A stretch of DNA of 64,000 nucleotides, taken from NCBI GenBank assembly GCA_963833135.1, contig CAWHWW010000010.1, forward strand, positions 16,822 through 80,821. Reading direction: 5' to 3'. Every line of letters starts with the position of its first letter. The first letter of the stretch is position 1. A model generated the notes under the pieces. It searched no databases and was not told the DNA's origin. It was given only the letters and a program-made list of their open reading frames with translations. This DNA is from an uncultured cyanobacterium (lineage in GTDB: Bacteria > Acidobacteriota > Vicinamibacteria > Vicinamibacterales > UBA2999). The position numbers were made by a program, and so were the translations under genes. This document shows, one piece after another, positions 48,251 to 64,000 of the stretch.

Positions 48251-48838
48251 ATGAAAGGCCTGGCCGAGCTCACCAAGACGACGCTCATCGGCGGACTGCT
48301 CGTCGTCCTGCCGATCTACGTTTCCATCCTGTTACTGGTCAAGACGCTGGCCGGCATCCTCGCGTTGCTGTCGCCGGTCACCGCGGCGGTCCCGGCCGGG
48401 GCGCAGTTCCGGCAGGTCATCGCGATCCTGATCGTGCTCGCCGTTTGCCTGGTGGCCGGGATCATTGTTCGCACCGGCCCCGGACTGCGGGCCAAGAGGA
48501 GGTTCGAGCGCAAGGTCCTCAAGAAGATCCCCGGGTATTCGCTGGTGCGGGGCATCACCGAACGGGTTTCCGGCGAAGACACCGAAGGCGCATTTCAGCC
48601 GGCGCTCGTGGAAATCGAGGACGCGCTCTCTCCCGGCTTCATCATCGAAGAGCTCGAGGACGGGCGCTACACCGTCCTCGTGCCGTCGGTGCCGACGCCT
48701 GCCGCAGGTGCCCTCTACATCCTCCCGCGGGAGCGTGTGCATCCGCTGGACGTGCCATTCACGCAGGCGGTGACGGTCATCTCCAAGTGGGGCGCGGGCG
48801 CGGGGGTGCTTGCGCGCGGCATATCGGTTCGATCGTGA
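48251..48838 (+). CDS. DUF502-like membrane protein
   Basis: ATG 48251. MKGLAELTKTTLIGGLLVVLPIYVSILLLVKTL. KKIPGYSLVRGI. AGALYILPRERVHPLDVPFTQAVTVISKWG. Frame intact. Confidence 0.6.
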   Translation: MKGLAELTKTTLIGGLLVVLPIYVSILLLVKTLAGILALLSPVTAAVPAGAQFRQVIAILIVLAVCLVAGIIVRTGPGLRAKRRFERKVLKKIPGYSLVRGITERVSGEDTEGAFQPALVEIEDALSPGFIIEELEDGRYTVLVPSVPTPAAGALYILPRERVHPLDVPFTQAVTVISKWGAGAGVLARGISVRS

Positions 48839-48895
48839 CGGCTCGAGTTGTAATCCCGGTTGGCCCCAAGCTCATCCGTGGTAGGGTTTCGCCCG

Positions 48896-49593
48896 ATGGG
48901 CACAACCCTCTCCGTCATTCTCCTGATCGCCATCGTGCTCGCGGCTGGATTGCTGCGCGATTCGTTTCGCACGAAAGCCGTCACGCGCTGGGGCAAGACA
49001 CATGGCTTCTCGTTCGTGCCGAAACCGGAACATGACAACGAACGCCTGATCGCGTGGGCCAAACGGTTTGCCACGACCAGCGCTTCACATTGGGGCATCG
49101 TGCTCCGCGGCGAAACAGCCGGCCTCGAAACAACAATCGCGGAACACGAAGAGAGGTTCGTCAAGAGCCCGGCCCGCTGGCACACATTGGCGGTCACGCG
49201 CGTGCCGGGTCTGAAAATGGATGCCGTGCGATTCACCCAAGCGGGTCGCAGGTGATTCGCGCCGTCACGGACGCGGTGACTGCGCCCGGTCGCGCCGTGC
49301 GCGACGCGCTGGGCATCGAAGTGACGGAGCGATCCGTCCATCGCGTCGGTCAAGGAAAGTGGGCTGTCGAAGGGTCGAACGACGACGCGCTCGCCTTCTG
49401 GTCGAGCGAGACGCAAGCGGCGGCGATCGACGCATGGCCGCACGACGCGGAGCTTGCCGCCGTCGACGACTACGTGCTGGTGAGAGTGCCCGGGCCCATC
49501 AACGCGGGGCGTCTCGACGATCTTCTCGCGAGCGCAGACGCCGCCCGTGCACTCTTTACCCAGGCGGCTGCGCGGATGCCCGTGACTCGATGA
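48896..49593 (+). CDS. hypothetical N-terminally membrane-anchored protein, one frameshift
   Basis: MGTTLSVILLIAIVLAAGLL, then soluble part. Continues in ORF 49054..49593 (WAVEGSNDDALAFWSSETQAAAIDAWPHDAELAAVDDYVLVRV). No family recognised. Confidence 0.35.
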
Positions 49594-49623
49594 TTCGTCG
49601 AAGATCGCCGGCGCGCCGGATCC

Positions 49624-51061
49624 TCACATTGTCTTGAGGAACTCGAGCAGCGCCTCGCGATCCGCCACGGACAATTGGTGACCGTAGGTGTGCCCACCGT
49701 TGCCATTGCCGCGATCGGACGTCTTGAAAAGGACGCCTTGTTTCTCGGCCTCTGGTCCGGACGAGACGAAACCCACGCCCTGGAAGTCGTAGACGTCGTA
49801 GGCGCGATAGAACGCCGCCGGCCGCGGGTCGAGCAGCAGGAGCGCGCGAAGCGTCGGCACCGAACCGTTGTGCAGATACGGTGCCCGCAGCCAGATGCCG
49901 TCGAGCGGCATGCCGGCGTAGCCGTTCGTCTTGCGGAAGTGCGAAAACCTCCAGGGCTTGCCCGTGCCGATGGTGTTCATCATCTTCGCCAGTTCCGGCG
50001 TAAAGGAATTCAGTCGCTCCGGATCGGTCCCGATCTCGGCGATGTCGATCGTCTGTCCCACCTTCGGCTGGCCGACGTCGTGACAGCTTGCACAGTGCTG
50101 CTGATAGAGCGGCCGTCCCGTGCTCGCCAGGGCGGCATTGATGCGGTTGGAAGGATACGAAGGCGGCTTCAGATCGAGAATCCAGTTGGCAATCCGATCG
50201 AGCGCCGCCAGGTCGATGGAGTGCTCCGTCGCGCCGGCGCCTATCGCCGCACTCTTGTTCCGCTCGTCGACCGAATCGTTGTTGCCATCCCAGTGCAGCC
50301 ATAATCCCTGGCGAATCCGCTGATTCCAGAGGGACGGCAGATCGGCGGTGCCGACGCTCGTATCGGAGGCGAAATTCGTCTCGGCCGAGAACATCTCCTT
50401 GTACGGATTGAACGTATCCACACGCCCCGGTCCCTGGGGCGGCCGCTTGTCGAACCAGGCGATGCGCGGGTCACGCTCACGAATGCCCTTCTGCGTGGCG
50501 TTAATCGCGAACAACCGGTAGGTGAGGCCATCGAGGAATCCGAACTCCGGATGCTTCTGCATGGCGGCGACGAGGGTATCGGCGTTGAACCTGGGATCGC
50601 TGGCACAGGCTGACAGGAACCGCGCATAGGCCTGGAGATCCATCTGGTGCGCGGGCATCCCGAGAACGATCTTCGGCGCGGCTCCCGGCGCCTCGCGATA
50701 CTGCGCCGACATGACAGGTCGCGCAGTTCAGTCCCACGCGCGGAACCCAGTCGTTGCTCTTGGACGCGCCCATCGGCAGGTCGCCCTTGGGATTGTCGTA
50801 GGTGAATCCGATGCGCTCGTAGCCGTTCCCAGGGCGATTGGGCAGCTTGTCGGCGAACACTTCGGGCAGCACTTTCCACAGCCAGTAGGGCACCCCGACG
50901 GTTCCCTCGGTCCCGATTGATCCGTACTTGAACTCGGTGGCGATGTCCGGAGTGGACTGGGCTGCCAGGCCAATCCATGCGCAGATCACAATCGCGAAGA
51001 CAATCTTGGTCACGATCCGCGGCGATCCACCGACGCGCGCGCCGTTCTCAACTCGTCTCAT
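49624..51061 (-). CDS. di-haem c-type cytochrome, cytochrome-c-peroxidase/MauG-superfamily-like, one frameshift near 50700
   Basis: Signal or anchor KIVFAIVICAWIGLAA. Two CXXCH sites: GLNCATCHVG (ORF 50501..51061) and QQHCASCHDVG. WLRAPYLHNGSVPTLRALL resembles the CCP-family motif. Confidence 0.6.
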
Positions 51062-51074
51062 CGCGTACTACTCC

Positions 51075-52337
51075 TTACGTTCGAGCGACCGCGGTTGCGA
51101 AGGCGTACGTGATGGCCTCGTTGGTCACGTCGCTATGGTCCTTGATGAGGCCGCCCGAGCCGTCAAGGTTGTTGATGACCTGGCCCTTGAAGTCGTACGG
51201 CGTTCCCGCGGCATTCAGCCGCGAGCTGGCAACTTCCGTCGTCCGCAGCGCTCCATTGCGGCCCAACCCGCCGAATTCGTCGCTTGCGTCGCCGATCGCC
51301 CTCGTGTTGTCGCCGGCGAGACGCGACATGACCGAGTAGGCCTTCCCGACGACGGTGTCCTGGGCGGAGAAGGTCGACAGGAACGGGCCCTTGACGACCT
51401 TTTGAACGATCACGTCGCGGAAAAATCCGGCGCTGCCGTGCCCGTTGTCCGAACTGAAGCCAAAGTGCGAGAACGCCGCCTCGAGCAACATCAGGGAATC
51501 AAGGGGAGTCTTCGGTGCTTCGGCGAGCGCCTTGGCGCACGCCGCCGCCAGGCGGCCGCCCAGGCTGTGTCCCACGACGTGGAGGCGAAGACTCGGCGAG
51601 CTGGCGCGCAGTGTTCGCACCGCTTTGGCGAGGCCCGTGGCGCCTACCGTTCCCGATCGCTCCTTCATCACGTACCACGTCGTCAGGTTCAGGAATTGTC
51701 CGACGCCGCCGGCGATCCTGCCGGCAACGTCGCCGATCCCGCGGGTGCCATCAGCAGGCGGACTCAATCGCGCAAGAATCTCGGAACCTGATCGCTGGCG
51801 GATCCGCGTCAGTCCCTCCGTCGCATCCGCGCCGGAAGCGTCGACCAACGACAACACCAGCTCGACGAATTCGTCTTGCGCTTGCGGATTCGTCTCGAGC
51901 GTGGGCAGAAGTGCGATCGCTTTATCCAGGTTACGGCGCTGCGCGGGCGTCGCGTTGTCGTCCTTGAACTCCTCGAGCTGCGCCTTCGCGTCGGCCAGCG
52001 TGGGCGAAGGATCGTGCAGTCCGCGTGTGCGGCCCGATCCCTCGTCGAAGTCCTCTCGAAACTGCTTCGACGGCCAGTAGACGCCGGCGAAGACAAACTG
52101 CCGGTTGGCCAGCGCGCTGAATTCCGGACGTGAGAGGTTCGCCCTGAATGTCTGCAAGAAACGCGTGTAGAGGTTCGTCGCGTCGTTCTCGTCGTTGCGA
52201 AAGCCGTGCGCGATGAAGACCACATCGGTGGCGGAACTCGCGCGCGCGGCCAGCGCCTCGAATTCCTGCCGCGACTGCAACGTTCCGTGATCATCAAATT
52301 TCAGTGGGAAGAAATCGAATCCGTCGATGGTCGGCAT
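51075..52337 (-). CDS. alpha/beta-hydrolase, DUF900/lipase-like serine esterase
   Basis: VVFIAHGFRNDENDA ... VFAGVYWPSK, and nucleophile elbow LHVVGHSLGGRLAA. Intact 420-aa ORF, 14 nt upstream of the di-haem cytochrome gene. Confidence 0.6.
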   Translation of the reverse strand: MPTIDGFDFFPLKFDDHGTLQSRQEFEALAARASSATDVVFIAHGFRNDENDATNLYTRFLQTFRANLSRPEFSALANRQFVFAGVYWPSKQFREDFDEGSGRTRGLHDPSPTLADAKAQLEEFKDDNATPAQRRNLDKAIALLPTLETNPQAQDEFVELVLSLVDASGADATEGLTRIRQRSGSEILARLSPPADGTRGIGDVAGRIAGGVGQFLNLTTWYVMKERSGTVGATGLAKAVRTLRASSPSLRLHVVGHSLGGRLAAACAKALAEAPKTPLDSLMLLEAAFSHFGFSSDNGHGSAGFFRDVIVQKVVKGPFLSTFSAQDTVVGKAYSVMSRLAGDNTRAIGDASDEFGGLGRNGALRTTEVASSRLNAAGTPYDFKGQVINNLDGSGGLIKDHSDVTNEAITYAFATAVART

Positions 52338-52500
52338 ACGTTCCTCGCTCGCGCCTGCACCAGCTCATCCGGAACGCGACGGCGCAACCGCCATCCTAAC
52401 CGGACTCCGCAACCGTGTCTGCACTGTGATTGAATGGGCCGGGCAGCATCATGCTGAGGTGGCTGGGCCCGCGCCATGAGCGGCCTGACAAGGAGAGGGC

Positions 52501-53469
52501 ATGACCTTCAAGACACCGGCGCTGGCCGAAGAGGCTATCGACCCGGACGAGGCGGCGGTCGCGACGGCGTTCGTCGAGTTTCTCAAGGCGACAAGCACGA
52601 AGCATCACCCCACCGGTACGGTCCCGCGATTCAACCAGGGCCGCGCTGCCGGGTGTGTCGAGGCGGAGTTCATCGTGCCTGACGGCTTGCCGCAGGATCT
52701 TCGTGTCGGCCTCTTCGCTCACCCTCGCACCTACAAGGCGCGCATTCGATTCGCGCACGCCTCATCGGAGTCGGACACGGAGCGCGACGTTCGCGGCATG
52801 TCGATCAAGGTTGCAGGCGTGGGTGGCGAGAATCTGACCCCGGGTGTGGCGGACCACGACTTCATCCTGAACAGTCACCCGGTGATGATGGTGGGGCACA
52901 CCAAGGCCTTTCTCGACTTGCTCAAGGCGGTGGAGGAGGGCGGTGCCGCGCAAGGACTGTTCTTCGTCACACATCCGCGCGCCGCGGCCGTGGCGCTGGC
53001 CTCGCGGCAGCATGCCACCAGTCACCTCGAGATTCCCTACTGGAGCACGACGCCCTACCTCTTCGGGCCGGGCCGGGCGGTCAAATACAGCGTGCGTCCC
53101 GCTTCGCCTCGAAAGACGCCGCTGCCGGACCCGTTGACCGACAACTACTTGCGGGAGCGCCTGGTCGCCCATCTTGCGCGGGAAGAAGCTCGTTTCGAGT
53201 TTCTCGTGCAGTTTCAGACCGACGGCCGGAAGATGCCGATCGAAGACGCGAGCGTGGAATGGAAGGAGGACGACTCCGCGTTCCGCGCGGTCGCCGAAAT
53301 TCGCATCCCCGTCCAAACGCTCGAAGGTCCGAGCGCCGCGTCCTGCGAGCAGCTTTCGTTCAATCCCTGGCACGCCCCGGCGGATCACCGCCCGCTCGGC
53401 GACTTCAACCGCGCGCGCCGTGAGATCTATCGCGCGATGGCGGCTTTTCGTGGGACGCCACGGGCCTGA
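52501..53469 (+). CDS. small catalase-fold haem protein (mini-catalase, y4iL/srpA/AOS-like clade; not a canonical catalase)
   Basis: AAGGAGAGGG RBS. RDVRGMSIKV (cf. catalase D.RGFA.KF). DHDFILNSHPVMMV (cf. D.vgNN.PVFF). Proximal-Tyr-like NRARREIYRAMAAFR. The catalase VHAKG position reads FNQGR by eye. Intact 322 aa. Confidence 0.6.
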   Translation: MTFKTPALAEEAIDPDEAAVATAFVEFLKATSTKHHPTGTVPRFNQGRAAGCVEAEFIVPDGLPQDLRVGLFAHPRTYKARIRFAHASSESDTERDVRGMSIKVAGVGGENLTPGVADHDFILNSHPVMMVGHTKAFLDLLKAVEEGGAAQGLFFVTHPRAAAVALASRQHATSHLEIPYWSTTPYLFGPGRAVKYSVRPASPRKTPLPDPLTDNYLRERLVAHLAREEARFEFLVQFQTDGRKMPIEDASVEWKEDDSAFRAVAEIRIPVQTLEGPSAASCEQLSFNPWHAPADHRPLGDFNRARREIYRAMAAFRGTPRA

Positions 53470-53493
53470 GTCCAAGGAGATCGAATCACTCCC

Positions 53494-54462
53494 ATGAGAA
53501 AAGCACTGATCGTCGGCATCAACTACTACTCACAGATTCCCCGGCTGTATGGCTGCGTGAACGACGCCCATGCGGTGAAAAAAACCCTGGAGCGGAACGG
53601 TGACGGCACGATCAACTTCACCGCCAACCTCTTCACGGCCGACAGCGACGCCGACGCCATCAGCCGCAGCACTCTGAAGCGCCTCGTTCGCGAGCTCTTT
53701 GCCGAAGATCACGAGGTGGCATTGTTGTACTTCGCCGGTCACGGGCACGTGGAGCAAACCGGCGGTTATCTGTGCAGCAGCGATTCCAGTGAGGGAGACG
53801 ACCTCTCGCTCGCCGACGTGATGACGTTTGCCAATGACTCGCCGGCCAAGAACAAGGTGATATTTCTCGACAGCTGCCATTCCGGAATCGCCGGCACGCC
53901 GGCCGGTCAAAAGGCAGCCGAAGTGGCCGAGGGTGTGACCATCCTGACGGCGTCGACCAAGGAACAGTACGCGACCGAGAAGAATGGCAGCGGCGTCTTC
54001 ACGTCGCTACTCGTGGATGCCTTGAACGGCGGAGCATGCGACCTGGTCGGCACAGTTACGCCGGGCGCCGTGTATGCGCACATCGATCAGTCGCTCGGTC
54101 CGTGGGAGCAGCGGCCGGTGTTCAAGACGAATGTGAAGGAGTTCGTTTCGCTGAGGCGCGTGCCCGCGCCCATTCCACTGGAATATCTGCTTCGGCTCAC
54201 CGAGTTCTTCCCGAAGCCGGGGATGAAGTTCGATCTCGATCCGAGTTTTGAGCCCGAGCCGAACGGAAGGCCGCCCGGCGTCGCTCCTCCGGACCCTGAA
54301 AACACCGCGAAGTTCGACGTGCTTCGACAGTTCAACCGCGTCAACCTCCTCGTGCCCGTTGGCGCGCCCCACATGTGGCATGCGGCCATGGAATCAAAGA
54401 GCTGCAAGCTGACGGCGCTCGGCGAGCATTACCGTCGCCTGGTTGAACGGAATCGGATTTGA
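53494..54462 (+). CDS. caspase-fold (peptidase C14) protease with unrecognised ~150-aa C-terminal domain
   Basis: [12 protein letters not shown]...LYGCVNDA. His in LLYFAGHGH. Cys in [13 protein letters not shown]. Intact 322 aa, 25 nt after the mini-catalase stop. Confidence 0.8.
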
Positions 54463-54475
54463 CAGAGCATAAGGA

Positions 54476-54545
54476 GGGCTTGCGGGCTTGCGGGCTACGG
54501 GCTTGCGCGCTGCGGGCTACGGGCTTGCGGGTCACGGGCTTGGGG
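54476..54545. repeat. One-armed tandem array of GGGCTTGC/GGGCTAC words: nine G3+ tracts spaced 3-11 nt (mostly 4-5) on the + (sense) strand
   Basis: Read directly: GGGCTTGCGGGCTTGCGGGCTACGGGCTTGCGCGCTGCGGGCTACGGGCTTGCGGGTCACGGGCTTGGGG. It is preceded by AAGGAGG (54471-54477) and is in frame with the downstream ORF (table ORF 54488..55069). Confidence 0.8.
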
Positions 54546-54562
54546 TCGCCGGAGACCGCGCG

Positions 54563-55069
54563 ATGACACGCATCGGGATTACCGGACATCAACGGTTGGA
54601 CGATGAGACGACATGGCAATGGGTGAGCATCGCCTTGGCTGACGCCGTATCACGGTCACCTCGTCCTTTCGCAGGCCTGAGCTCGCTCGCGATTGGCGCC
54701 GATCAGCTTTTTGCGTCGATCGTGCTCGATCAAGACGGTGCGCTCGAGGTCGTCGTGCCGTTTCCTGACTACCGGAGCCGTTTCGCCGACGAGCAGGATG
54801 CGAAGCGCTACGACGCCTTGTTGTCGCGCGCGTCACGTGTCGAAGTCCTGCCGGCACAAGCGTCCGACGAGAAGGCCTACCTGGCGGCCGGAAAACGAAT
54901 CGTCGATCGCAGCAACGAAATGTTTGCGGTGTGGAATGGTCAGCCAGCCGCCGACGTCGGCGGAACCGGCGATATCGTGCAGTACGCGCGAGAGCGTCGG
55001 ACGCCTCTTGACCGTGTTCAATCCCGTGACCCGGACGGTGCTCCTCCCGGACCGCCGGTTGGCGAATGA
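54563..55069 (+). CDS. stand-alone SLOG/YpsA-like Rossmann-fold protein (putative nucleotide-derivative binding)
   Basis: MTRIGITGHQRL, LSSLAIGADQLFASIVL, EVVVPFPDYRSRF, MFAVWNGQPAADVGGTGDIVQYARERRTPL. This pattern matches my memory of YpsA/DprA-type SLOG motifs (G.TG..., G.A.G.D, vwdG...GGT..v.yA). Alternative TTG start at 54488 inside the repeat. Confidence 0.45.
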   Translation: MTRIGITGHQRLDDETTWQWVSIALADAVSRSPRPFAGLSSLAIGADQLFASIVLDQDGALEVVVPFPDYRSRFADEQDAKRYDALLSRASRVEVLPAQASDEKAYLAAGKRIVDRSNEMFAVWNGQPAADVGGTGDIVQYARERRTPLDRVQSRDPDGAPPGPPVGE

Positions 55070-55091
55070 TTCTCTCTGAGAGAAACCTGTC

Positions 55092-56505
55092 ATGCCTGAA
55101 CTGAGGAAAGTCTTCATCAGCCACTCTCACAAGGACGAACCACTGGCCTCGGCGTTCCGTGACACGCTGAAAAACATCTTCAACAACGTCGACGTCGCTT
55201 TTTCGTCTGACAAGACCGTTGGAGGAGGACCCTCGTCCGGGTCGAACTGGCTCGAGTGGATACACACTCGCATGCGCGACTGTCAGGAGTCACTGCTGTT
55301 GCTGACGCCGTATTCGATACGGCAGCCCTGGCCGATGTGGGAGGCGGGCGCCGTCGGCGGGATGGCGATCATCAATCCGGATCCGGCTGCCGCCCCGTTG
55401 AAGGTGGTGACGCCGATTCGCTTCAACATCGCGCAGGAAGCGCTGCCCGGCCCTTTCGTCGTCACGCAGGCAATCGACGGGCGGGATCCGGAATCGCTCC
55501 GAAAGCTGCTCGGCGATCTGATGAAGCGCTATGACTACGCGGGAACGCCGCAGGCGACCTATAGAGCCGTGCTGAACGATCAGATTCCTTCACTGGCCCA
55601 GACGATCAAAGGCTGGCTCGAAAACTCTCCGCCCATGGTGACCGAGGGGATGGTGATGGAGTGGTGCAGCCGGCTCGATGAACTGCGCGACCAGCGGCGC
55701 AGCTCGGAGGTCCGCTACCTGCACCACTGGATCCGCCTGATGTACGAGGGCCCGCAACAGGAGGAAGCGGACCGGCAGACCTGGAGCCAGACGCCGCGCC
55801 GGGAAACGTGGGACCTGCGCCTGCATTTGCGGCTGGCGCAGAACTACACGATCGCGCAACAGTACAAGGAAGCCATCGAGCAGTATTTGCTCGCGGCGCA
55901 ACTCGCGCCACTCGACGCGTTCGTCCTGCACCGTCTCGCCCAGGTCTATCTCGACGTCGCGGATGCGGACGCTTCGCGGCGGACGATCGATCAAGATCCT
56001 GAACCTCGACAAGGACGCCTTGAAATGGAATGCCGAGATCGCCGGCCTCGAGGGCCGTTATTGGAAGGACCAGGGCCGGAGGCATCAGGCCGAGAGCAAG
56101 CCCCAACAAGCGCAGGAGTCGTTCAGGAAATCGCTGCAGGCGTACGAGGCGGCAATGAACATCGACGGAGTCAAAGTTGATTTCTACATGGCCGACAACG
56201 TCGGGCAGTTGAGCCTGACGCTCGGCGACATCCCGGCTGCCAAGAGAGCCTACGAGCGCGCGCGCGTCGCTCTCGAGAATGTGACCCGCGAGACTGAGAG
56301 CGTGTGGAGCCTTGCGACGCGTGCGACCGCCGCACTGGTGCTGGAGGTTGATGACAAAGAGGCGCTCGACTACCTTGCCCGCATTCGGGAGTTCGAGCCG
56401 ACCGATTCCCAGAAGGCCAGCATCTCCCGGGGGCTGCAGCTGATCAAAAAGGCGCTCGACAAGACGGACGCCGACTATCGGCGCTGGGTCGGTCTGCTCG
56501 GATAG
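55092..56505 (+). CDS. TIR-domain protein fused to a TPR/DUF4071-like helical repeat module, one frameshift near 55985
   Basis: TIR: RKVFISHSHKDEPLASAFRDTL...SLLLLTPYSIRQPWPMWEAGA. Repeats: LRLAQNYTIAQQYKEAIEQYLLAAQLAP, VLHRLAQVYLDV, AEIAGLEGRYWKDQG (resembles the DUF4071 GR.YKD signature), SFRKSLQAYEAAM. Confidence 0.7.
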
Positions 56506-56506
56506 A

Positions 56507-56536
56507 CGGCGCCCGCTACCGTGCGGGCTCCTGCCG
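56507..56536. terminator. Short GC hairpin between convergent operons (GCCCGC-TACCGT-GCGGGC)
   Basis: Read directly at 56511-56528, with flanking CGGC/GCCG extension. It sits in the 33-nt spacer between stops 56505 (+) and 56539 (-). No clear U-tract. Confidence 0.35.
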
Positions 56537-56538
56537 AT

Positions 56539-57608
56539 TCAGTCGCGCTCGCGGGGCATGATCTTGGCTTTCTTTTTTCTGGCCTGCCGCGCGGCGCGGC
56601 GAACCGGTTTCCGGACGGCCCGCGCGCGTGTCGAGGGAGGCGCGATCGTTCGCAGCCGCGGCGCCACACGGGCGGTGGTATCGGCCGCCGGATCCAATAC
56701 GTAGCGGGGCAGGATCCCCTGGGTATAGAGCAACCCGTAGACCAGCGCCTGATTGGTCTTGTGGCCCGGCTTGAACACGTTGTTCTCGAGCCACTCCTTC
56801 GCGTGTGCGAGGCCCCGTCCGAGATCGATGTCGACATCGGCCGAGTGCACCATCGACGCGGGGTCCCCGCCAGGCAACGGCATTGCGTCCTTGGAGAACG
56901 ACAGTTGAACGTTTCCTTCGGCGAACCGCGTGTGCTTCCAGCTGTCGGGATGCGCGGGCAGATCGGCCAGGTCACCGCCGGGGGCGCCATGTCCCGGCGC
57001 GCCGGCAAACTCGCTTGCGCGCGGCATCCGCGCCTTGAGCGCGGCGTATCGAAAAACACGAACGCCCGATCGACGGCGACGTGACGCACGCCGCGCACGA
57101 ATCCGAGGAGCGGGGCCCCATCGAGAACGGTTTCGCGCAGCTTGGCCTCGATGTTCAGAAAGGCCATCTTGGCGGCCGACGTCCAGCGCACGAAAGGCCG
57201 CAGCGTCGATGCCGCTTTTTGGCGCCACAAACGGCGACGCGATCTGCTGCGAGACGATCGAAGCCGTTCGGGAGATCGGTCGTTCCGGGTGCATCGGGCA
57301 CCAGCATCAGCCGCAATACCAGGTCGTCGCCTTCGACGTTCTCCGGAACCCGAATGAAGTCCCGGCGCCGGATCAGTTGCCACGCCGGCCGATGTTGAGG
57401 CGCCGAAAACGTGATGCCGTACACCTGTCCGGCATCGAAGGGCAGCGCGAGCCGGAGCTCGAGCGTCGATTCGTCGGTCTTTCCCTGGAAGAGGAGACGC
57501 GGACCGCCGGAGGCGAAGACGTCGGAGACGCGGATGCTCAGCGGCACCGCCGCGCCAGAGATTTCGATCGCAGCCGTAGAGGATGACGGTCAGCCGTTTC
57601 TCGGTCAC
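56539..57608 (-). CDS. unrecognised protein, last gene of the gasdermin operon, basic C-terminal tail, at least 3 frameshifts
   Basis: GTG 57608 lies 5 nt after GGAGG, which follows the gasdermin TAA. Pieces: PLSIRVSDVFASGGPRLLFQGKTDESTLELRLALPFDAGQVYGITFSAP; AAKMAFLNIEAKLRETVLDGAPLLGFVRGVRHVAVDRAFVFFDT; HSADVDIDLGRGLAHAKEWLENNVFKPGHKTNQALVYGLLYTQGILPRYVLDP; tail RKPVRRAARQARKKKAKI. Confidence 0.5.
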
Positions 57609-57618
57609 CGTCGCCTCC

Positions 57619-58428
57619 TTACTGCGCCACGCGCACGAAGGCGCCGCGAGTCTCGAGAAAGACCGGGCGGCGGGCGGCCCCGCCGGCCGGAGGAAAGGCC
57701 CGCGCCGCCGCTTCTCCGGCGCCCAGTTGCTGCGTCGTCAGGAACTGACCGGATTCGTCGAACACGAGTTGCACGGCCTGAAACGCGAACGCCACCGGTA
57801 CGGCGCCCTCGAAGGCGATTTTCGATTCCATTCCGCTGGCCGTGCCGACGTTGACGCTGCCGCCGACGGCTTGCTGAATGACCGGCACGTCGACCTTGAC
57901 CGTGGCGCCGTTCTCGCCCTGCGCCGCGACGACGATCTTCTTGGTCTTCAAGACCGACGTCACGACATAGACCTCGTCATCGAGCAGCTTCTCCAGCGTG
58001 CCGGCCGGAATGTGCGGGCTGATCCGTCCCGCCTTGACGAATTTTTCGACCGCAAGGACATCGACGACGTCCTCCATCACCGCGGCGTATTGGAAGGTCA
58101 CGGTGCGCGCCTTGTTGAAGGCGACGTCGAGACCAAGCTTGCCGCCGCCGAGCGCCGAGATGAACGCACCGAGGATACTCAACCCGATCGCGACGTTGAC
58201 CTTGCTGGTTTCCTTCCCCTCGATGTCGATGCCCGGATTTCCGTCCCGCCGCACATCAGGTGCGGCGATCTCGCCGGCGTCGACGAGATCCGGCACCATG
58301 CCGAGACGCGTCAGATCCTTCCCGTCACGGTGCATCAGCTCGAGCGGTTGCGCCGATGCGCGCGGAAAACGAAACACACTGAACCCGAAGCTGCGCAGGA
58401 ACGTGATTGACTGATCAGGTCTCGACAT
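57619..58428 (-). CDS. bacterial gasdermin (bGSDM) homolog
   Basis: Intact 269-aa ORF from ATG 58428. FLRSFGFSVFRFPRASAQPLELMHRDGKDLTRLG, VAIGLSILGAFISALGGGKLGLDVAF, VPVIQQAVGGSVNVG, IAFEGAVPVAFAFQAVQLVFDESGQF match the bGSDM consensus as I remember it (GLSILG..I.A.GG.KLGLD; VP.IQ..VGG.V.V; EG.VP..F.FQAV.L). Followed by a ~35-aa tail. It lies 8 nt downstream of a caspase-like gene. Confidence 0.75.
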   Translation of the reverse strand: MSRPDQSITFLRSFGFSVFRFPRASAQPLELMHRDGKDLTRLGMVPDLVDAGEIAAPDVRRDGNPGIDIEGKETSKVNVAIGLSILGAFISALGGGKLGLDVAFNKARTVTFQYAAVMEDVVDVLAVEKFVKAGRISPHIPAGTLEKLLDDEVYVVTSVLKTKKIVVAAQGENGATVKVDVPVIQQAVGGSVNVGTASGMESKIAFEGAVPVAFAFQAVQLVFDESGQFLTTQQLGAGEAAARAFPPAGGAARRPVFLETRGAFVRVAQ

Positions 58429-58436
58429 GTGACACC

Positions 58437-59279
58437 TCAGGCGGAAAACAGCGGCGTTTCGAACCGGGCGGTCCGGCCTTCGAGCTGCGGCACCTGCTCG
58501 AACTTCCTGGTCTTGAGTACGACAGCAGCGCGATCGTGCAGCTGTTTGTAGGTGAGCGCGGCCTTGCCCTTGCGCATGGCCTCGACGAGCGCGAAGGTGA
58601 GCGCGCCGTTGTAGCGGCCGTTGATGAAGGCGTCGGCCGAGGTCTGCGTGTCGCGGCACCCGGTGATGAGCACTTCGGGAAGGTCCGCCTTCACGATGTC
58701 CTTGGTCTTGCGGGCCGCCCGCGAGCGAGCGCCGGAGCTCGCTCGTGACCTTTCTCGGCAGACTCCGTCCGGATTCCACCGCTTTCAGGCTCGCAGGGAC
58801 TCGGGAGGTAGCGTTGCCTGACGGGCGCGTCGGGCGGCAGGAAGGCGCGCGTGTTGGTGCCCGAATGGCAGCAGTCCATGATGACCGTGAGGTTGACGCC
58901 GTCTTTCATCCCGTCGAACGTGGTGCGCAGCCAGTCGTCGCGGAGCGGATCGTCCCAGTCAAGATCGGTCGGGCAGAGGATCTCGTCGCGGCCGTCGGCC
59001 TCGTCGCTGTTGTCGTCGGGCACGTTCGAACCGTGGCCGGAGTAATGAAGGACGGCGACATCGCCCTTCTTCGAGTCGCGCAGCAAGCGCCTTGATTCCG
59101 GCCTCTATCGCCTTCTTCGTTGCCTCGAAGTCGGTGAGCACGGCGATGTCGCTCTTCTTGAAGCCGTAACACTCGACGAGCGCGGAGCTCAGGTCCTCCA
59201 CGTCGTTGACGCACCCCCGGAGATCGGCGCCGTCTATCCGGTATTTGTTGATTCCAATCAGCAACGCTCGCTTAGCCAT
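58437..59279 (-). CDS. caspase-fold (peptidase C14) protease, 2 frameshifts
   Basis: MAKRALLIGINKYRIDGADLRGCVNDV. His in VAVLHYSGHGS. Cys in LTVIMDCCHSGT. C-terminus VLITGCRDTQTSADAFINGRYNGALTFALVEAM. Pieces lie in ORFs 58959.., 58691.., 58437... Confidence 0.8.
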
Positions 59280-61182
59280 TCACACCCTCCCACTCCAACG
59301 GAATGCCGTAACCAGCTGGTCATCGGCGACGGAATCTGATTTGCGCCGGATCGGTCAGCAGGGCGCCCACGCCCTTCGTCGTCACCGTCGAACGGATCAA
59401 GCTCGCTGAGTGAACCGAACGAAAGCCCGGCGCGCTCTTCGATGGTTGCGATCCGTGTCTGCGAGGTCTTGTGCTTCCCGAAGACGAACTCCTCGTCGCG
59501 CAGAAAATCTTCCTGCGACATCGTGTAGCCGGTCGCACACAGCTCCCTGGTCTCGTCGTGGATGAAGGCGATGACTTTCCAGAACGAGCGTGGAATCAGG
59601 ACGCCGTCACGGATCGGATCGTCGGGCATCAGGAACGGTCCCGTCATGACGGAGATGCGCATGTCATCGGACCGCGCGTTGTCGAGCGCGTAGCTCTCGA
59701 GCGCGAGCCAGATGCCGCCGTTGAACGGCTGCATCTGGGGCACGGTGTTCGTCACGTGCATCGAGTCGCTGTTGCCGAGCGCCGCCTCGTCGGGATCGCC
59801 CCAGACCGGGTCTTCGCGACGCGTCATGTGGCCGCGCGAGAACTTCGGCTCGCTCCCATAGCACTCGTCCTTGATTTGCTGCCTGACGGGAATGCGAGGA
59901 TCGAGGCGCCACGAAGGACGCTTGAACCGGCGAGGCGTTGCGCCGTCGATGTTGCCGGCAGCTGAAGATACACAGACGCCGGCTGCGGCTCATCACCACC
60001 GAGAAGTGCTGATACTTGAGCTCCGATTCCTGAGCACCATTCCAGGGGAATGTGAGGACGTCGGCCGCATTGTTCACCAGCGGGCAGTGGCACATCCACT
60101 CCGACAAACCGCGGGTCATACCCCTTGCGCCCGATGTAATCCTCGGGCACGCCTTCGACGAACACCTCGTAACCGGCAGGCGTCCCGGCGTCCGGTGTCG
60201 GCGTGACGATGGCGTGAGGAGTGACGGGACCCTGGGGCGGGCGGCTCGAGGGCTTTCCGGGCTTCGGATGTCGCACTTGTTCGAGGCGCTCCGCAACGAC
60301 CGTCATCGGTACGGCGTAGTTGGTTTCGAGAAAGCGGCCCGCGAAGTGCAATCCGACGGCGTGCCCGGTCCCCAGATCGAGCACGACCGAACCCGAGTTC
60401 CCTCCAAGCGTCGAACAGTCGTGGAGCAGGACATCCGTTTTCGCCTCCGTCACTTGACCCGGAGCCAGGCGCTTCTTGTCGAACACGTCGCCGAAGATCG
60501 ACTGCACCAACTGCTCGTCGGGCGCTCGGCTGTCCCTGGCGGGATATCCGATCACGGCCACCTGCTGCGCGGCGTGAGGCGGTGACACCGAGAGCGGGAT
60601 CGGAGGCGCGAGCGCCTGACCGCGCGATTCGCCCACGCGCAGGAGCGCGAAGTCCGGGCCATCGTCGTCTTCGATGTGCAGGATCTCGACGATCGGGAAC
60701 GAGAGGCGTTCCGGCCGGCCCACTTCTTCGAGGAAGTCGATGGACACGCCGGATGGTGATCCGTCTTCCTTCTTGAACATGAAACGATCGCGCCCTCGTT
60801 GCCCGAACTCACGCGCCACGTGACGATTCGTCACGATGGTGTCCTTCTCCACGAGCCAGCCCGTGCCGACGTACGGCACGCCCGGACGACCGGTGACGTT
60901 GATGCGTCCGACGGCACCCGCCGCGCGCTGCAGCTGCGCGCTCGAGGCCTGAAGACGGGTGCGCCAGACCTCGCTTTCGCTTTCCCTGAATTCCAGTTGT
61001 GCCGCGCCGCCGACGACCGCCAGAACCGGCCGTCCCACGCGAAGCACGATATTTCGAAGGCTCTGACCCGCATCGCGAAGCGAGCGGGTACCGCTGATCT
61101 GTCGGAGTTCGTCGGCGAGCAGCCGATCAGCCGTGTCGAGGGTCGAGATGAGTTGCTTCAGCCATTCGTCGAGGTCTCCCAT
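59258..61182 (-). CDS. fusion protein: N-terminal helical region + trypsin-like serine protease + DNA/RNA non-specific (NucA/EndoG, beta-beta-alpha-Me) endonuclease; at least 2 frameshifts
   Basis: Protease triad: TIVTNRHVAREF (H), GPDFALLRV (D), CSTLGGNSGSVVLD (S). Nuclease: KYQHFSVVMSRSRRLCIFS, hand-read AAGNIDGATPRRFKRPSWRLDPRI...EPKFSRGHMTRREDPVWG, NTVPQMQPFNGGIWLALESYAL. The stop is uncertain (59258 or ~59320). Confidence 0.75.
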
Positions 61183-61202
61183 CGCAGCCTTGCCAGAAGC
61201 GC

Positions 61203-62526
61203 CTATTGAAAGGTCTGCGGACGATAGACGGACAGAATCTGCTCGATCATCGCTTCACGCGACGGGTAGCGGCTTTCGTCGTAGCAGCCGAGCGGGTTCT
61301 CCGGTGCATTCACCAGGCAGCGGTTGCAGTACGTGCACGGGTTCTCCGGCCGGCCGATCCCGTTCGCGAACTGCTGCACGAGATCGTTGTTGGCGATCAG
61401 CGGCCGCGCAATGGTCACCGCGTCGCAGTCGCCACGAGCGATGGCGTCTTCGATGATCGCGGCCGTCTGGAATCCGCCGGTGCACAGCACCGGAATGCTG
61501 CCCACCGCCTGCTTGATCGCGCGGGCATCGTGGAGATTGAGTCCTTCAATCTTGTCCTTCGGACCGCGCGCGTTTTCCCATCGTTTCCTGAACAGTTCCC
61601 CGGTGATCCGCCCGCTGAACAAGATGTAGTTTCTGAGCGCCAGCACGCCGCTCGAGATCAGGCTGTCGTACGTCTTTCGCAGCTCGTCCACCGGCAGATC
61701 GCCGGCCGGATTCTTCGGGTGTGGAAACGAGCTGCCCGGACGACACGTGGATGGCGTCCACGCCGTCTTCCTTCAGCCACTGACAGACCTGGACGGAATC
61801 CTCCACGGTGTTGCCGGGCTTCTCGTCCGACAGCATCGCGTCGTTGAATTCCGTCGCGCTGATCTTCATCTGCAGGTGGAAGTCCCGCCCCACGCGCGCG
61901 CGGATTGCCTGGACGATCTCGCGCACGAACCGTGCGCGGTTGGCGAGCACGCCGCCGTATTCGTCGGTGCGATCGTTGATTGCGGAGCTGAGAAACTGCG
62001 TGATCAAGTAGCCGTTCGCGCCGTGCAGCTCCACGCCGTCGAGGCCCGCCTCGCGCGCGCGTCGTGCACCCTCGGCGAAGGATTGGATCGCTTCCTTGAT
62101 CTCGGCGAGCGTCATCGCTTCGCATTCGAAGCCATGTAGCGGATCACGTTTCCCCGTCGAGCTGAGACCCTTCGGATAGTCGAAGGTCGCGATGTCGCGT
62201 TGCCGGCCGCCATGGCTGAGTTGGAGGATGTACTTGCAGTCGTGTTCGTGCACGGCGTTGCCCAGCGCACGCCAGAACGGAATGCGATCGTCGCTCACGA
62301 TCGTCGCGTAATTCGGCAGGATGCGCCCGCGCTGATGCACCGGCACGAACGACGACACGATGGCGCCGACGCCTCCGCGCGCGAACTTGACTTCCCAGTT
62401 GATGCGCGCCTGCGCGCCAGTGCCATCGTAGTTGTCGAAGCGGCCCGCGATGTTCGATCGCAGAATGCGATTCTTCACCGTCAGATTGCGGAAGCTCAGG
62501 GGCGAAAAAATGCGTTCGTATGGCAT
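61203..62526 (-). CDS. Old Yellow Enzyme-family NAD(P)H:flavin oxidoreductase, frameshifted
   Basis: ATG 62526. MPYERIFSPLSFRNLTVKNRILRSNI, ILQLSHGGRQ, GLDGVELHGANGYLITQFLSSAINDRTDEYGG, DAVTIARPLIANNDLV. C-terminal piece in ORF 61203..61691. Its stop is only 20 nt upstream of the protease-nuclease start. Confidence 0.85.
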
Positions 62527-62636
62527 GGCGGCGCGAATTATATGCGCAAAAGGCGGGTGCACGAATTTCGATCTGTGGCATAGTCTGCGATTCTGCACGC
62601 TGATCATCGAGCACGTGGTTCTGCTGCGAGGGATGA

Positions 62637-63800
62637 ATGACGGACAAGCACCTGAAGGGACCGTGGTACAGGCAGCCGAAGTTGACCGCGATGCCGCAAC
62701 TCGTCGAAATTCGCAACCAGCTCAGGCGTGAGAATCTGCACGATACGGAAGAATCGCCACTTGAAAAGCGAGTTGATACTGCTGAGCCGGATGCCGCGCT
62801 GCGGGAAGAGCGCACCGTCGATGGCTCGTACAACGATCTCGAGCTCCACGCCAAGGCGAAGCTCATCAACTCAGCGCTCATGGCCAAGATCCATACCGTC
62901 GAGTGGACTCCGGCCATCCTGCCGCACCCGGTCACCCAGCTCGCAATGCACGCAAATTGGTACGGCCTGGCGGGCGACGAGCTGCAGGAAGTCCTGAAGT
63001 TTCTAAACGACAACGAGATTCTCGGAGGCATCGTCGGGTCGAAATACGATCACCACACGGCTCCCTACGCGTTCACCGAAGAGTTCGTATCCGTGTACCG
63101 GATGCACCCGCTCATTCCCGACGACGTGGCCATCAGGTCGTTGGACAACGATGCCGTCGCGGAAACGATCGAGCTGCCCGAGCTGTCCGGCCGTAAGGCT
63201 CCCGGCGTCGTGAACCGGATAGGCATGTCCGATTTGTTCTACTCGTTCGGACGGTGTCACCCCGGCGCCATCACCCTGCACAACTACCCGAAGCATCTGC
63301 AGAATCTCAGTCGCGACAACGGTGAACATCTCGACCTCGCCGCCGTAGACATCTTCAGAGATCGGGAACGTGGCGTGCCCCGGTACAACCAGTTCCGCCG
63401 GCTCTTTCACAAGGACCCGGTGAAGTCGTTCGAGGAGCTGACGGACAACCCGGTGTGGCGCGAAGAAATTCGACGCGTCTACGGAAACGATGTGGAGAAG
63501 GTCGACTTGATGACCGGGCTCTATGCCGAACCGCTGCCGCCCGGATTCGGTTTTAGCGATACGGCGTTCCGCGTCTTCGTCCTCATGGCGTCACGACGCC
63601 TGAAGAGCGACCGCTTCTTTACGAACGATTATCGCGCCGAGGTATATACCGAATTCGGACTGAACTACCTGAAGGACAACTCAATGTTAACGGTCTTGAA
63701 GCGACACCATCCGGATTTGGCGCCTGCCCTCCGGGGTGTCGACAATGCCTTCAAGCCATGGCGTAAGGTCGAAGCAGGGGGTGCACATGTCGCGTCGTAA
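62637..63800 (+). CDS. alpha-dioxygenase/COX-type (animal haem peroxidase superfamily) fatty-acid haem dioxygenase homolog, apparently lacking ~230 aa of the N-terminal catalytic half
   Basis: LINSALMAKIHTVEWTPAIL, HHTAPYAFTEEFVSVYRMHPLIPD (cf. plant alpha-DOX PYSLTEEFVSVYRMH.LLP with catalytic Tyr and proximal His), AAVDIFRDRERGVPRYNQFRR, LMASRRLKSDRFFT. The N-terminal LRRENLHDT...RTVDGSYNDLE joins directly to LHAKAKLIN. Confidence 0.7.
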   Translation: MTDKHLKGPWYRQPKLTAMPQLVEIRNQLRRENLHDTEESPLEKRVDTAEPDAALREERTVDGSYNDLELHAKAKLINSALMAKIHTVEWTPAILPHPVTQLAMHANWYGLAGDELQEVLKFLNDNEILGGIVGSKYDHHTAPYAFTEEFVSVYRMHPLIPDDVAIRSLDNDAVAETIELPELSGRKAPGVVNRIGMSDLFYSFGRCHPGAITLHNYPKHLQNLSRDNGEHLDLAAVDIFRDRERGVPRYNQFRRLFHKDPVKSFEELTDNPVWREEIRRVYGNDVEKVDLMTGLYAEPLPPGFGFSDTAFRVFVLMASRRLKSDRFFTNDYRAEVYTEFGLNYLKDNSMLTVLKRHHPDLAPALRGVDNAFKPWRKVEAGGAHVAS

Positions 63801-64000
63801 TCGCCCGTCATCGTTTGAACCGTCGGATCTCAACGACCGCTGCTGTGTTGCGCCGAGTCCTCAACTGCGGGAACGTATCCGCGAAGTCTTGCGGAGCATC
63901 AACGAAACTCCCGGGGTCGCCGCTCGTGGCCGCGTCGTGTTCCAGCCACAGCAACGTCCCGGCTTCAACGATGGTTTGATCATTCCCGGCACCGAGTTTC
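63787..64000 (+). CDS. partial ORF running off the right edge, unrecognised
   Basis: Hand translation from ATG 63787, which overlaps the previous stop by 14 nt: MSRRNRPSSFEPSDLNDRCCVAPSPQLRERIREVLRSINETPGVAARGRVVFQPQQRPGFNDGLIIPGTEF... There is no stop before 64000. It is not in the ORF table. Confidence 0.3.
   Translation, partial: MSRRNRPSSFEPSDLNDRCCVAPSPQLRERIREVLRSINETPGVAARGRVVFQPQQRPGFNDGLIIPGTEF

Follow-up and report, generated by a model that had tools for sequence, protein, structure and literature searches.

Six-frame open reading frame (ORF) analysis, frame plots of GC content at third codon positions (GC3), and searches of the translations against Pfam, Protein Data Bank (PDB) sequences, PADLOC and NCBIfam were used to annotate a 64,000-nucleotide stretch of contig CAWHWW010000010.1 (assembly GCA_963833135.1, placed by GTDB in the Vicinamibacterales of the Acidobacteriota), which is referred to here as the window. 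Its last part, from 49.6 to 64 kb, holds an island in which death genes are interleaved with redox enzymes. The death modules are two C14 caspases (relatives have CHAT-TPR-S proteins), a bacterial gasdermin and its neighbour p343, a trypsin-like protease fused to a nuclease, and a TIR-TPR protein. The redox enzymes are an alpha-dioxygenase (alpha-DOX), a small catalase-related haem protein (mini-catalase), a RoxA/FadCcp-like di-haem cytochrome c and an OYE/FadH-type reductase, which together make up a predicted fatty-acid-oxygenation module. Comparison with related loci suggests that the two sets of genes belong to one conserved composite island.

ORFs, starts and gaps divide the island into four transcription units. 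Unit H (minus strand) encodes a lipase-like alpha/beta-hydrolase (51075-52337) and, 13 nt downstream, the di-haem cytochrome c (49624-51061). Unit 1 (plus strand) has the order mini-catalase (52501-53469), caspase A (53494-54462), a conserved 168-aa ORF (54563-55069) and the TIR-TPR gene (55092-56505). Unit 2 (minus strand) has the order OYE (61206-62526), trypsin-nuclease (59327-61182), caspase B (58437-59279), gasdermin (57619-58428) and p343 (56557-57608), and unit A (plus strand) is the alpha-DOX gene alone (62637-63800). The reading of these units as operons is supported by start codons, Shine-Dalgarno-like sequences and intergenic gaps of 8-47 nt, with the exception of a gap of 100 nt ahead of the 168-aa ORF. 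An earlier note on this DNA, made from the letters alone, had proposed the same inventory of redox and death genes, with the 168-aa ORF taken for a SLOG protein; all the genes it named were recovered in the database searches, the SLOG family aside. It had also observed that redox enzymes head the two death operons, and the promoter-proximal genes are indeed the mini-catalase in operon 1 and OYE in operon 2. Its description is corrected here in that the island genes contain at least 12 frameshifts, alpha-DOX has lost about 198 residues, and the stretch at 56.5-57.6 kb is a gene, p343.

Redox enzymes of the island

The cytochrome (PF21419, E 1.7e-15) carries two CXXCH motifs (CATCH and CASCH), a RoxA-like C-terminal domain and an N-terminal signal or anchor helix. 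Its gene is interrupted by one frameshift at about 50.68-50.71 kb, mapped against the orthologue at locus L001 (related loci are designated by L numbers and individual proteins by P numbers). The L001 orthologue passes the NCBIfam model NF040606 for di-haem cytochrome c peroxidase with 173.6 bits (cutoff 150), and falls far below the cutoffs of the RoxA, RoxB and RoxC equivalogs.

The mini-catalase is a protein of about 320 aa with similarity to the catalase core. The sequence from the window alone has no Pfam match; relatives match PF00199, and a profile of the family matches MAP_2744c (3e4w, E 2.6e-5) and coral allene-oxide synthase (AOS; 1u5u, E 8.5e-4) among the PDB sequences. R306 and the proximal tyrosine Y310 are invariant, the latter being aligned with the tyrosine of 3e4w. 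H36 is also invariant; it lies outside the stretch aligned to 3e4w, and the residue preceding it is Arg. In AOS-type catalase-related enzymes, Thr typically precedes the distal His. From the fusions and neighbours of the family, we infer that the mini-catalase acts on fatty-acid hydroperoxides.

The best PDB matches of alpha-DOX, an An_peroxidase protein, are plant alpha-dioxygenases (4kvj, E 1.5e-76), with coverage limited to residues 292-617 of 4kvj and to positions 247-522 of the An_peroxidase profile. The orthologue at L007 is intact, with E 2.4e-113 to 4kvj against 1.8e-26 to lactoperoxidase, and keeps both the distal His and YRMH. Relative to it, the window copy lacks about 198 residues in-frame (~594 nt), corresponding to residues 77-274 of L007 and to approximately 90-291 of rice alpha-DOX. 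The missing part includes the distal haem histidine motif AAWIQFMVHDW, which is identical in the L007 orthologue and shows one substitution in the fusion protein P0114. The catalytic Tyr and proximal His are kept in the window copy, where SVYRMHPLIP aligns with SVYRMHSLIP of 4kvj. The junction lies near 62830-62840, between 'DGSYNDL' and 'ELHAKAKL', and the flanks of the deleted segment are alike in the intact gene (NDL and NDDRL), which points to a deletion through microhomology or else to a collapse during assembly.

OYE is a predicted Fe-S flavoenzyme with the Oxidored_FMN TIM barrel (PF00724, E 7e-57; 215 bits for an orthologue), a match at the level of the family that is not specific to OPR3. 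The orthologue resembles BaiCD, the N-domains of FadH, and NamA, all below the model cutoffs. One frameshift falls in this gene, at about 61.72 kb.

Death genes of the island

The gasdermin falls in the prokaryotic family (NF051890, 186 bits, cutoff 100; PADLOC bGSDM, E 9.3e-66; 7n51, E 2.4e-32). It shares an operon with caspase B, 8 nt separating the stop of the latter at 58437 from the gasdermin ATG at 58428. Both caspases belong to Peptidase_C14 (PF00656, E 2e-20 for A and matched on two fragments for B) and carry the motifs of the His-Cys dyad (FAGHG/DSCHSG in A, YSGHG/DCCHSG in B). Caspase A matches the PADLOC 'caspase' model (E 5e-16) and scores 97 bits with NF047832, under its cutoff; caspase B is 74-87% identical to the C14 protein of L001 across four frames. 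The trypsin-nuclease (Trypsin_2, E 1.5e-17; DNA/RNA non-specific endonuclease, Endonuclease_NS, E 7e-35) retains, in alignments, the H, D and S of the serine-protease triad together with the nuclease motif RGH, and its family has at least 3550 members. Its residues 1-95 are modelled by AlphaFold2 as four helices and a small sheet, at a predicted local distance difference test (pLDDT) score of 25-62 that makes the model unreliable there; no CARD-like N-domain was found, a Foldseek search with this low-pLDDT model returning trypsin-fold matches only.

The TIR-TPR protein combines a TIR_2 domain (35.3 bits, cutoff 28; also PADLOC TIR-TM and ThsB matches) with a C-terminal TPR/TPR-S-like region (TPR-S weak, E 0.001), and one frameshift is found in its gene at about 55.85-55.99 kb. 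Among relatives, TIR, CHAT and trypsin domains all occur with attached TPR-S repeats. Conservation of the preceding 168-aa ORF reaches 82-87% in L134 and L135, as against 27-32% in two Bacteroidota loci described below; its motifs, GxTGH...GADQ...W(N/D)G...GGT, are recognisable by eye. The SLOG label given to it in the earlier note is reduced here to a likeness, the ORF having no match in Pfam, PADLOC, NCBIfam or PDB sequences. PADLOC recognises only single parts of the island.

The gene p343 was delimited by tblastn with the 343-aa protein of L001, and is the last of operon 2. Like caspase B and the trypsin-nuclease, it contains at least three frameshifts. The family has 417 hits, confined to soil metagenomes, and no Pfam match in the scans run. 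The AlphaFold2 model is poor (pLDDT 46.6), and Foldseek returned generic beta-sandwiches for it, none at E <=0.001. Some members are fused to VanY/Peptidase_M15_4 (P0178, P0207, P0220 and P0236), and at L138 (12736-14493) a VanY gene precedes p343, in the slot held by gasdermin in the window. Because gasdermin or VanY alternates just upstream, and given the VanY fusions and neighbours, it is a reasonable guess that p343 may be a lysis partner with a role in envelope lysis. A further ORF of L007, 'p350', was dropped, being Arg-rich and probably a wrong-frame artefact.

Conservation of the redox genes as a unit

Clustering of the mini-catalase family at 90% identity gives at least 2527 clusters, and at 50% there are 5075 representatives. 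When a single genome of each species was scanned, 52 mini-catalase loci were obtained, almost all of them in soil metagenome-assembled genomes (MAGs) of Acidobacteriota/Vicinamibacterales. In approximately 20 of the 52, the mini-catalase lies in a same-strand array with other redox genes, ordered either OYE-alphaDOX-cytochrome(x1-2)-minicat or alphaDOX-OYE-minicat with two divergent cytochromes; MAGs of Oceanospirillales and Lysobacterales carry the order alphaDOX-minicat-cyt-cyt. The mini-catalase is also found in natural fusions: with an alpha-DOX-type peroxidase, in both orders (P0114, P0091, P0499 and P0507), with a RoxA-like di-haem cytochrome c (P0381, P0390 and P0441), with a lipid-binding SRPBCC domain (P0396), and with a DyP peroxidase (P0389, P0413, P0482, P0433 and P0484).

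The resemblance of these genes to an oxylipin-type pathway had been pointed out in the earlier note, and gains here from the conserved operon, the natural fusions, and the precedents of Nostoc and of FadCcp in Pseudomonas discussed below, because of which we retain the description. That the redox genes form a genuine unit, a fatty-acid-oxygenation (oxylipin-type) module, appears well-founded on comparative grounds, with the substrate being predicted.

Two further kinds of neighbourhood were observed. Loci in Flavipsychrobacter MAGs of the Bacteroidota (L047, 5215-16712, and L048) place a distant mini-catalase beside a patatin phospholipase, together with a 513-aa protein with a SLOG-like region, a SnoaL protein and a giant kinase-STAND-GAF-guanylate cyclase protein, making a second neighbourhood of lipase, mini-catalase and signalling genes, in another phylum. 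In some genomes, extra lipid or redox genes adjoin the island itself (L057, 1573-7810; L138, 3412-6050). They encode an OYE paralogue, a protein of the SRPBCC/Polyketide_cyc2 type, and a GMC oxidoreductase followed by a mini-catalase paralogue of 38% identity; a protein near the same islands, p440, has a nitroreductase-like motif by eye.

Linkage of redox and death genes

On a 1.38-Mb Acidobacteriota contig (L001), where the mini-catalase is 71% identical to that of the window, the cytochrome-hydrolase pair is divergent from the mini-catalase, and the opposite strand carries OYE→trypsin-nuclease→C14→p343→DUF7379-CHAT-TPR-S with gaps of 9-126 nt, alpha-DOX being divergent from OYE. The variant found in the window, minicat→[CHAT]→C14→ORF→TIR→TPR-S, is repeated in L134 (88%) and L135 (80%). 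In a different arrangement (type B; L007 and L075), the order OYE→alphaDOX→TPR-S-trypsin→trypsin-nuclease→TIR→AAA occurs together with gasdermin→cyt→cyt, and a similar core, OYE→alphaDOX→TPR-S-trypsin→trypsin-nuclease, recurs on contigs from two further metagenome samples. L082 has cyt→OYE→alphaDOX→trypsin-nuclease, and in L136 alpha-DOX is directly divergent from the trypsin-nuclease, without OYE. L022, L021 and L025 carry OYE→minicat→TPR-S protein, with C11-CHAT, C14 and a PGAP1-type hydrolase on the opposite strand in L022 and L021, while L016 and L024 have OYE→alphaDOX→cyt→minicat→DUF900 hydrolase, and CHAT further on. A C14, CHAT or TPR-S gene follows the mini-catalase on the same strand in the window, L134, L135, L005, L009, L021, L022 and L025. 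Interleaving of redox and death genes is thus maintained in at least three different arrangements.

Linkage was also assessed in the reverse direction, by a metagenome scan anchored on the trypsin-nuclease, which yielded 80 loci. Where homologues of at least 57% identity have at least 300 nt of upstream sequence, OYE or alpha-DOX lies directly upstream in 16 of 18, at gaps of about 15-45 nt. At the same level of identity, C14 is downstream in 22 of 26 homologues, and gasdermin and/or p343 are present in 11 of the 14 with enough downstream sequence. The earlier note had made its proposal depend on whether redox and death genes are co-localised elsewhere; operons with both kinds of gene are clearly seen in numerous genomes and metagenome contigs, in several orders.

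For a census against background, as the note had suggested, loci were scored with locally built hidden Markov models, a death-type gene being defined as a caspase-superfamily, TPR-S, TIR or gasdermin gene. Such a gene is present in 9 of 15 long redox-cluster loci, against 1 of 12 long loci in which the mini-catalase stands alone (Fisher p 0.0075), counts that are inflated by shared ancestry and for which the control loci come partly from other phyla. It directly abuts a redox gene in 9 of the 14 positive loci, and no death-type gene was found in the window outside the island. The stronger argument, as far as gene order can tell, is the repeated adjacency at the level of operons across proteins that are 57-83% identical, together with the rearrangements.

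The content of the island varies between relatives. OYE is missing in L068 and L136, and alpha-DOX is missing in L057, L066 and L083, while the window copy has lost part of it. L083 and L138 have TIR and TIR-FGE genes inserted beside CHAT, and the gasdermin slot is empty in L001 and holds a VanY/M15 peptidase in L138.

The hydrolase as a candidate protease-gated lipase

The alpha/beta-hydrolase has a GHSLGG nucleophile elbow and weak matches to Lipase_3, DUF900 and Tle3. A helical insert of some 95 residues, which immediately precedes the catalytic core, is bounded by two T-R-G/S sites. TRG or TRS is found at both positions in all 10 close orthologues aligned, and is absent in the distant paralogues of L016 and L024. 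The neighbours of the hydrolase are CHAT or C14 proteases. A caspase-linked alpha/beta-hydrolase has been described as a zymogen that becomes lethal after a double cut between Arg and Gly (Evans et al. 2025, PMC12642450). The island hydrolase is like this zymogen in its caspase or CHAT neighbours and in the two T-R-G/S sites around an insert by the catalytic core; it differs in the length of the insert (~95 as compared to ~44 residues), in being co-transcribed with a di-haem cytochrome c, and in its position beside oxylipin-type enzymes.

We therefore regard the hydrolase as a candidate for a protease-gated lipase zymogen, a prediction made from sequence features. Because its two conserved Arg-Gly sites resemble those of the zymogen of Evans et al., the lipase is placed downstream of the proteases, and since it is co-transcribed with a periplasmic di-haem cytochrome and adjoins the mini-catalase, it is proposed to feed the oxygenation module. 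No similarity was detected between the hydrolase and the DUF7379 N-domain of the CHAT protein by BLASTP, or between p440 and the hydrolase by hhalign.

Coupling of cell death to lipid oxygenation, and alternative explanations

Some kind of functional coupling between the redox and death genes is fairly probable. The particular reading that we favour, with a probability of about 0.42, is that the region represents one copy of a composite island conserved among soil Acidobacteriota (Vicinamibacterales-type), whose oxylipin module would be transcribed together with protease-gated death modules and be an output of the death programme. Its basis is what is observed: the identities of the genes, their conserved linkage in operons, the fusions between enzymes and the Arg-Gly sites shared by orthologues. 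TPR-S-type sensor parts would activate the caspase or CHAT proteases, which would cut gasdermin to form a membrane pore, and the hydrolase at its two Arg-Gly sites to yield an active lipase, with the nuclease and TIR effectors acting in parallel. Fatty acids freed by the lipase would then be oxygenated by alpha-DOX and the periplasmic di-haem cytochrome, the mini-catalase would rearrange the hydroperoxides, and OYE would reduce enal or enone products. The resulting oxylipin may serve as a diffusible alarm for kin cells or as an amplifier that damages membranes. An output role is favoured because the redox genes are lost or exchanged as effectors usually are, unlike an indispensable sensor. The more specific version, a pyroptosis-like programme hard-wired to oxylipin synthesis, whose COX-superfamily dioxygenase and partner enzymes make a mediator that warns or kills neighbours, is on the unlikely side.

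Several points weigh against the output reading. OYE or alpha-DOX accompanies none of the 41 trypsin-nuclease homologues below 57% identity, and the L137 homologue, at 56%, is likewise without redox genes. Approximately 40% of redox clusters have no death gene detected within 10 kb, so that each part works without the other, and gasdermins, caspases and trypsin-nucleases are mostly found without these redox enzymes. The association is confined to a single lineage of islands and does not extend to gasdermin, caspase or TIR systems at large. None of 20 long mini-catalase proteins has a redox domain fused to caspase, CHAT or TIR. The hydrolase is likened to LcHydrolase (the zymogen of Evans et al.) by site pattern and neighbours, not by sequence homology, and the alpha-DOX copy in the window is probably dead if its deletion is real. 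The tight adjacency of mini-catalase and TPR-S could equally mean that the sensor reads the enzyme or its product, and the output mechanism as a whole draws on comparative genomics of uncultured organisms.

This last adjacency is also the best support for the opposite direction of signalling, which the earlier note had proposed. In this reading the input would be oxidised lipids or peroxides that stem from damage to membranes, from phage entry or from reactive oxygen species; the mini-catalase and alpha-DOX would turn them into a ligand or would change state themselves, to be read by TPR-S, TIR or SLOG parts that switch on caspases and gasdermin. The mini-catalase is promoter-proximal and directly ahead of TPR-S, CHAT or C14 genes in at least eight genomes, with three partner architectures; OYE likewise heads operon 2, and haem enzymes such as the catalase-related AOS and hydroperoxide lyases react fast with hydroperoxides. 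We nevertheless consider such an input role rather doubtful, as the redox genes are individually lost or swapped while the core of protease, effector and TPR-S persists, the hydrolase looks protease-gated and hence downstream, and the ligand-reading step is conjecture, the SLOG-like ORF matching no family model. Of the interpretation in the earlier note, pathway identity and co-localisation stand, whereas the signalling direction and the SLOG family remain conjectural. Similarly doubtful is an absence of any coupling, in which an independent lipid or secondary-metabolism operon would lie in a variable region that gathers conflict genes and is inherited within one lineage. This would account for the redox clusters without death genes, including the cluster in Proteobacteria, for the wide occurrence of the trypsin-nuclease, gasdermin and caspase families without redox genes, and for the variation of flanking genes between relatives that is expected of a variable region. 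It sits poorly with the gaps of about 15-45 nt that put OYE and the trypsin-nuclease in one transcription unit across 57-83% identical proteins, with the several gene orders in which redox and death genes are interleaved beyond mere adjacency, and with the lack of caspase, CHAT, TPR-S and TIR genes in the remaining 49.6 kb of sequence outside the island.

Least probable, and indeed quite improbable, is that the redox enzymes are a safeguard or antidote, clearing fatty-acid hydroperoxides, aldehydes and enals that a leaky lipase or oxidative stress would generate, to keep the death system silent or to shield neighbours. The first-gene position would guarantee co-expression with the toxins, and OYE-type reductases and catalase-related proteins do detoxify lipid electrophiles and peroxides, but a 4kvj-like alpha-dioxygenase makes hydroperoxides and does not remove them, and islands survive the loss of OYE or mini-catalase, which is unexpected for an antidote. 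It is also unlikely, if somewhat less so than these three alternatives, that this copy of the island is decaying and non-functional, with the frameshifts and the truncated alpha-DOX being real mutations. The frame breaks, recognised by comparison with orthologues, and the in-frame loss of 198 residues including the distal His from alpha-DOX speak for decay. On the other side, a frame-aware Viterbi pass finds frame switches at about 1 per kb that are equally dense across the whole of the window (1-64000). Beyond the island, housekeeping genes such as those for the amino-acid permease, kynureninase and GSDH cover their Pfam profiles in part only, related MAG loci derived from nanopore sequencing show split matches of the same kind, catalytic motifs are intact wherever readable, and the alpha-DOX deletion may also be an assembly collapse. 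Because of the even density, the fragmented housekeeping genes and the similar MAG relatives, the frameshifts are most likely assembly errors and not decay, and the window looks like an error-prone long-read MAG assembly.

Relation to known systems

The island resembles the described bacterial gasdermin systems (Johnson et al., 10.1101/2021.06.07.447441; Wein et al., PMC10312443), as far as the available passages of these papers describe them, in that gasdermin lies 8 nt downstream of a C14 gene, that relatives carry trypsin-like proteases, trypsin-fused effectors, an ATPase and TPR-type repeats, and that the gasdermin slot in relatives may hold another effector or stay empty. The passages of Wein et al. 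(PMC10312443) also report a CARD-like N-domain on trypsin-like proteases. Unlike the systems in those passages, the island operon is headed by OYE and flanked by alpha-dioxygenase, mini-catalase, di-haem cytochrome and lipase, and neither the available passages of the gasdermin papers nor the literature searched places peroxidase or oxylipin-type enzymes with a bacterial gasdermin. The systems of Kaur, Burroughs, Iyer and Aravind (PMC7159879, PMC8195603) and the Pfam description of TPR-S, in the parts available, share with the island the joining of TPR-S to CHAT, trypsin or TIR, caspases of the 'EACC1-associated type', and alpha/beta-hydrolase, nuclease and TIR effectors. A term search of the available text of PMC7159879 and PMC8195603 found no mention of peroxidase, catalase, fatty-acid dioxygenase or oxidoreductase partners.

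For the oxygenation module, a precedent is the cyanobacterial (Nostoc) 10S-DOX that is paired with a catalase-related hydroperoxide lyase (Brash et al. 2014, as cited in the available part of PMC13049297). Like this pair and the AOS-lipoxygenase fusion of coral (1u5u), the island combines a dioxygenase, here of the COX/alpha-DOX superfamily, with a catalase-fold protein of about 320 aa. It differs from Nostoc in that its dioxygenase is closest to plant alpha-DOX, with oxygenation at C2, and not to 10S-DOX, and from both in the addition of OYE, RoxA-like cytochromes, a lipase and interleaved death genes. In Pseudomonas aeruginosa, the RoxA-related di-haem proteins PA2077 and PA2078 (FadCcp) oxygenate oleate (PMC4496055), and the oxylipins of the oleate-diol synthases are cell-to-cell signals that act in quorum sensing (PMC4496055, PMC6377657). 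The island shares with FadCcp a RoxA-related di-haem cytochrome c, often in tandem pairs, and a context of fatty-acid oxygenation, the likeness being one of family and not of direct sequence comparison with PA2077 and PA2078. Unlike Pseudomonas, the island has no OdsR-type regulator, and to our knowledge death modules are absent from the PA2077/PA2078 operon.

The same cast is met in eukaryotes: a protease of the caspase family, gasdermin, a lipase, a dioxygenase of the COX superfamily, a hydroperoxide-transforming enzyme of catalase or P450 type, and an OYE reductase. In the 'eicosanoid storm' of the animal inflammasome, caspase and gasdermin act together with cPLA2 and COX, and the oxylipins of the plant wound and hypersensitive responses are made by lipase, oxygenase, AOS and OPR3. 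This is an analogy only, and no homology of the whole pathway is implied.

Each part of the island belongs to a known family or is closely related to one: the pairing of gasdermin and caspase, the protease-effector modules, the TPR-S, CHAT and TIR proteins, the alpha-DOX and catalase pair, and FadCcp/RoxA. What appears to be new, judging from gene content, is their combination, a fatty-acid-oxygenation module set within a caspase/gasdermin/TIR island that is widespread in soil Acidobacteriota. The earlier note knew of no system of this composition, and we found no description of one in the literature searched (on bacterial gasdermins, TIR and caspase surveys, and ferroptosis-like death), the combination of redox and death genes being absent from the searched ferroptosis-like death literature as well. 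If the coupling is functional, lipid oxygenation could be an ancient arm of regulated cell death, or dying bacteria could emit lipid alarms. The island would then offer a tractable system for the link between pyroptosis and lipid mediators in animals and between cell death and oxylipins in plants. Under the more specific, pyroptosis-like version, it would correspond in prokaryotes to the eicosanoid burst of the inflammasome, and to jasmonate and hypersensitive-response signalling in plants. By-products of the comparison are a candidate protease-gated lipase with defined cleavage sites, the gasdermin partner p343, which alternates or is fused with a cell-wall peptidase, and a widespread enzyme trio of mini-catalase, alpha-DOX and RoxA-like cytochrome with predicted chemistry.

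Intergenic elements, borders and base composition

The divergent region between the hydrolase and mini-catalase genes (52338-52500) was compared between the window, L001, L004 and L009, and an element TGTGATT[GC]AAT is common to the window, L001 and L004. The divergent region between OYE and alpha-DOX (62527-62636; CAGAATC/GATTCTG element and a -10 box in the window) shares a GATTCTG[TC]CACGAAC-like element in eight loci (the window, L001, L054, L056, L057, L063, L074 and L077), which is reverse-complemented in the window and L063. A TA[GT]AAT box, TATAAT in the window, lies about 11 nt ahead of the OYE ATG in these regions, which suggests that the OYE transcript may be nearly leaderless. A common operator for the two divergent regions was considered and rejected, since each has its own conserved element and no convincing joint motif was seen. 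A consensus scan of the window for promoters and terminators performed no better than on shuffled sequence.

The genes of the left flank are ordinary (Fpg, DinB, ArsR, kynureninase, amino-acid permease and amidohydrolase). Between the DUF502 gene and the cytochrome gene, about 0.8 kb (48811-49632) has no clear coding frame and contains a 303-aa ORF without a family match; this stretch is the apparent left border of the island. As noted earlier from inspection, no integrase, tRNA or insertion sequence marks the borders: the tRNA and Rfam scans gave no match, and no integrase or insertion sequence was found in the window. The impression that the region is slightly less GC-rich is confirmed by computation, with 63.2% in the island against 66.1% elsewhere, a value below that of any equal-sized stretch of the remaining window. 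GC3 is approximately 0.8 in the island and host-like, and given this and the lack of mobility genes there is no sign of a recent foreign origin.

In relatives, a Peptidase_S8 gene stands beside the islands of L136 (4010-7934) and L137 (4582-8530), and on contigs carrying P0353; in L136 and L137 it is accompanied by an 86-aa ORF and a RimK-type ligase. Genes of the nSTAND/LRR, HepT/MNT and phage-sheath-like types also lie near these islands, which therefore seem to be set within a wider conflict region.

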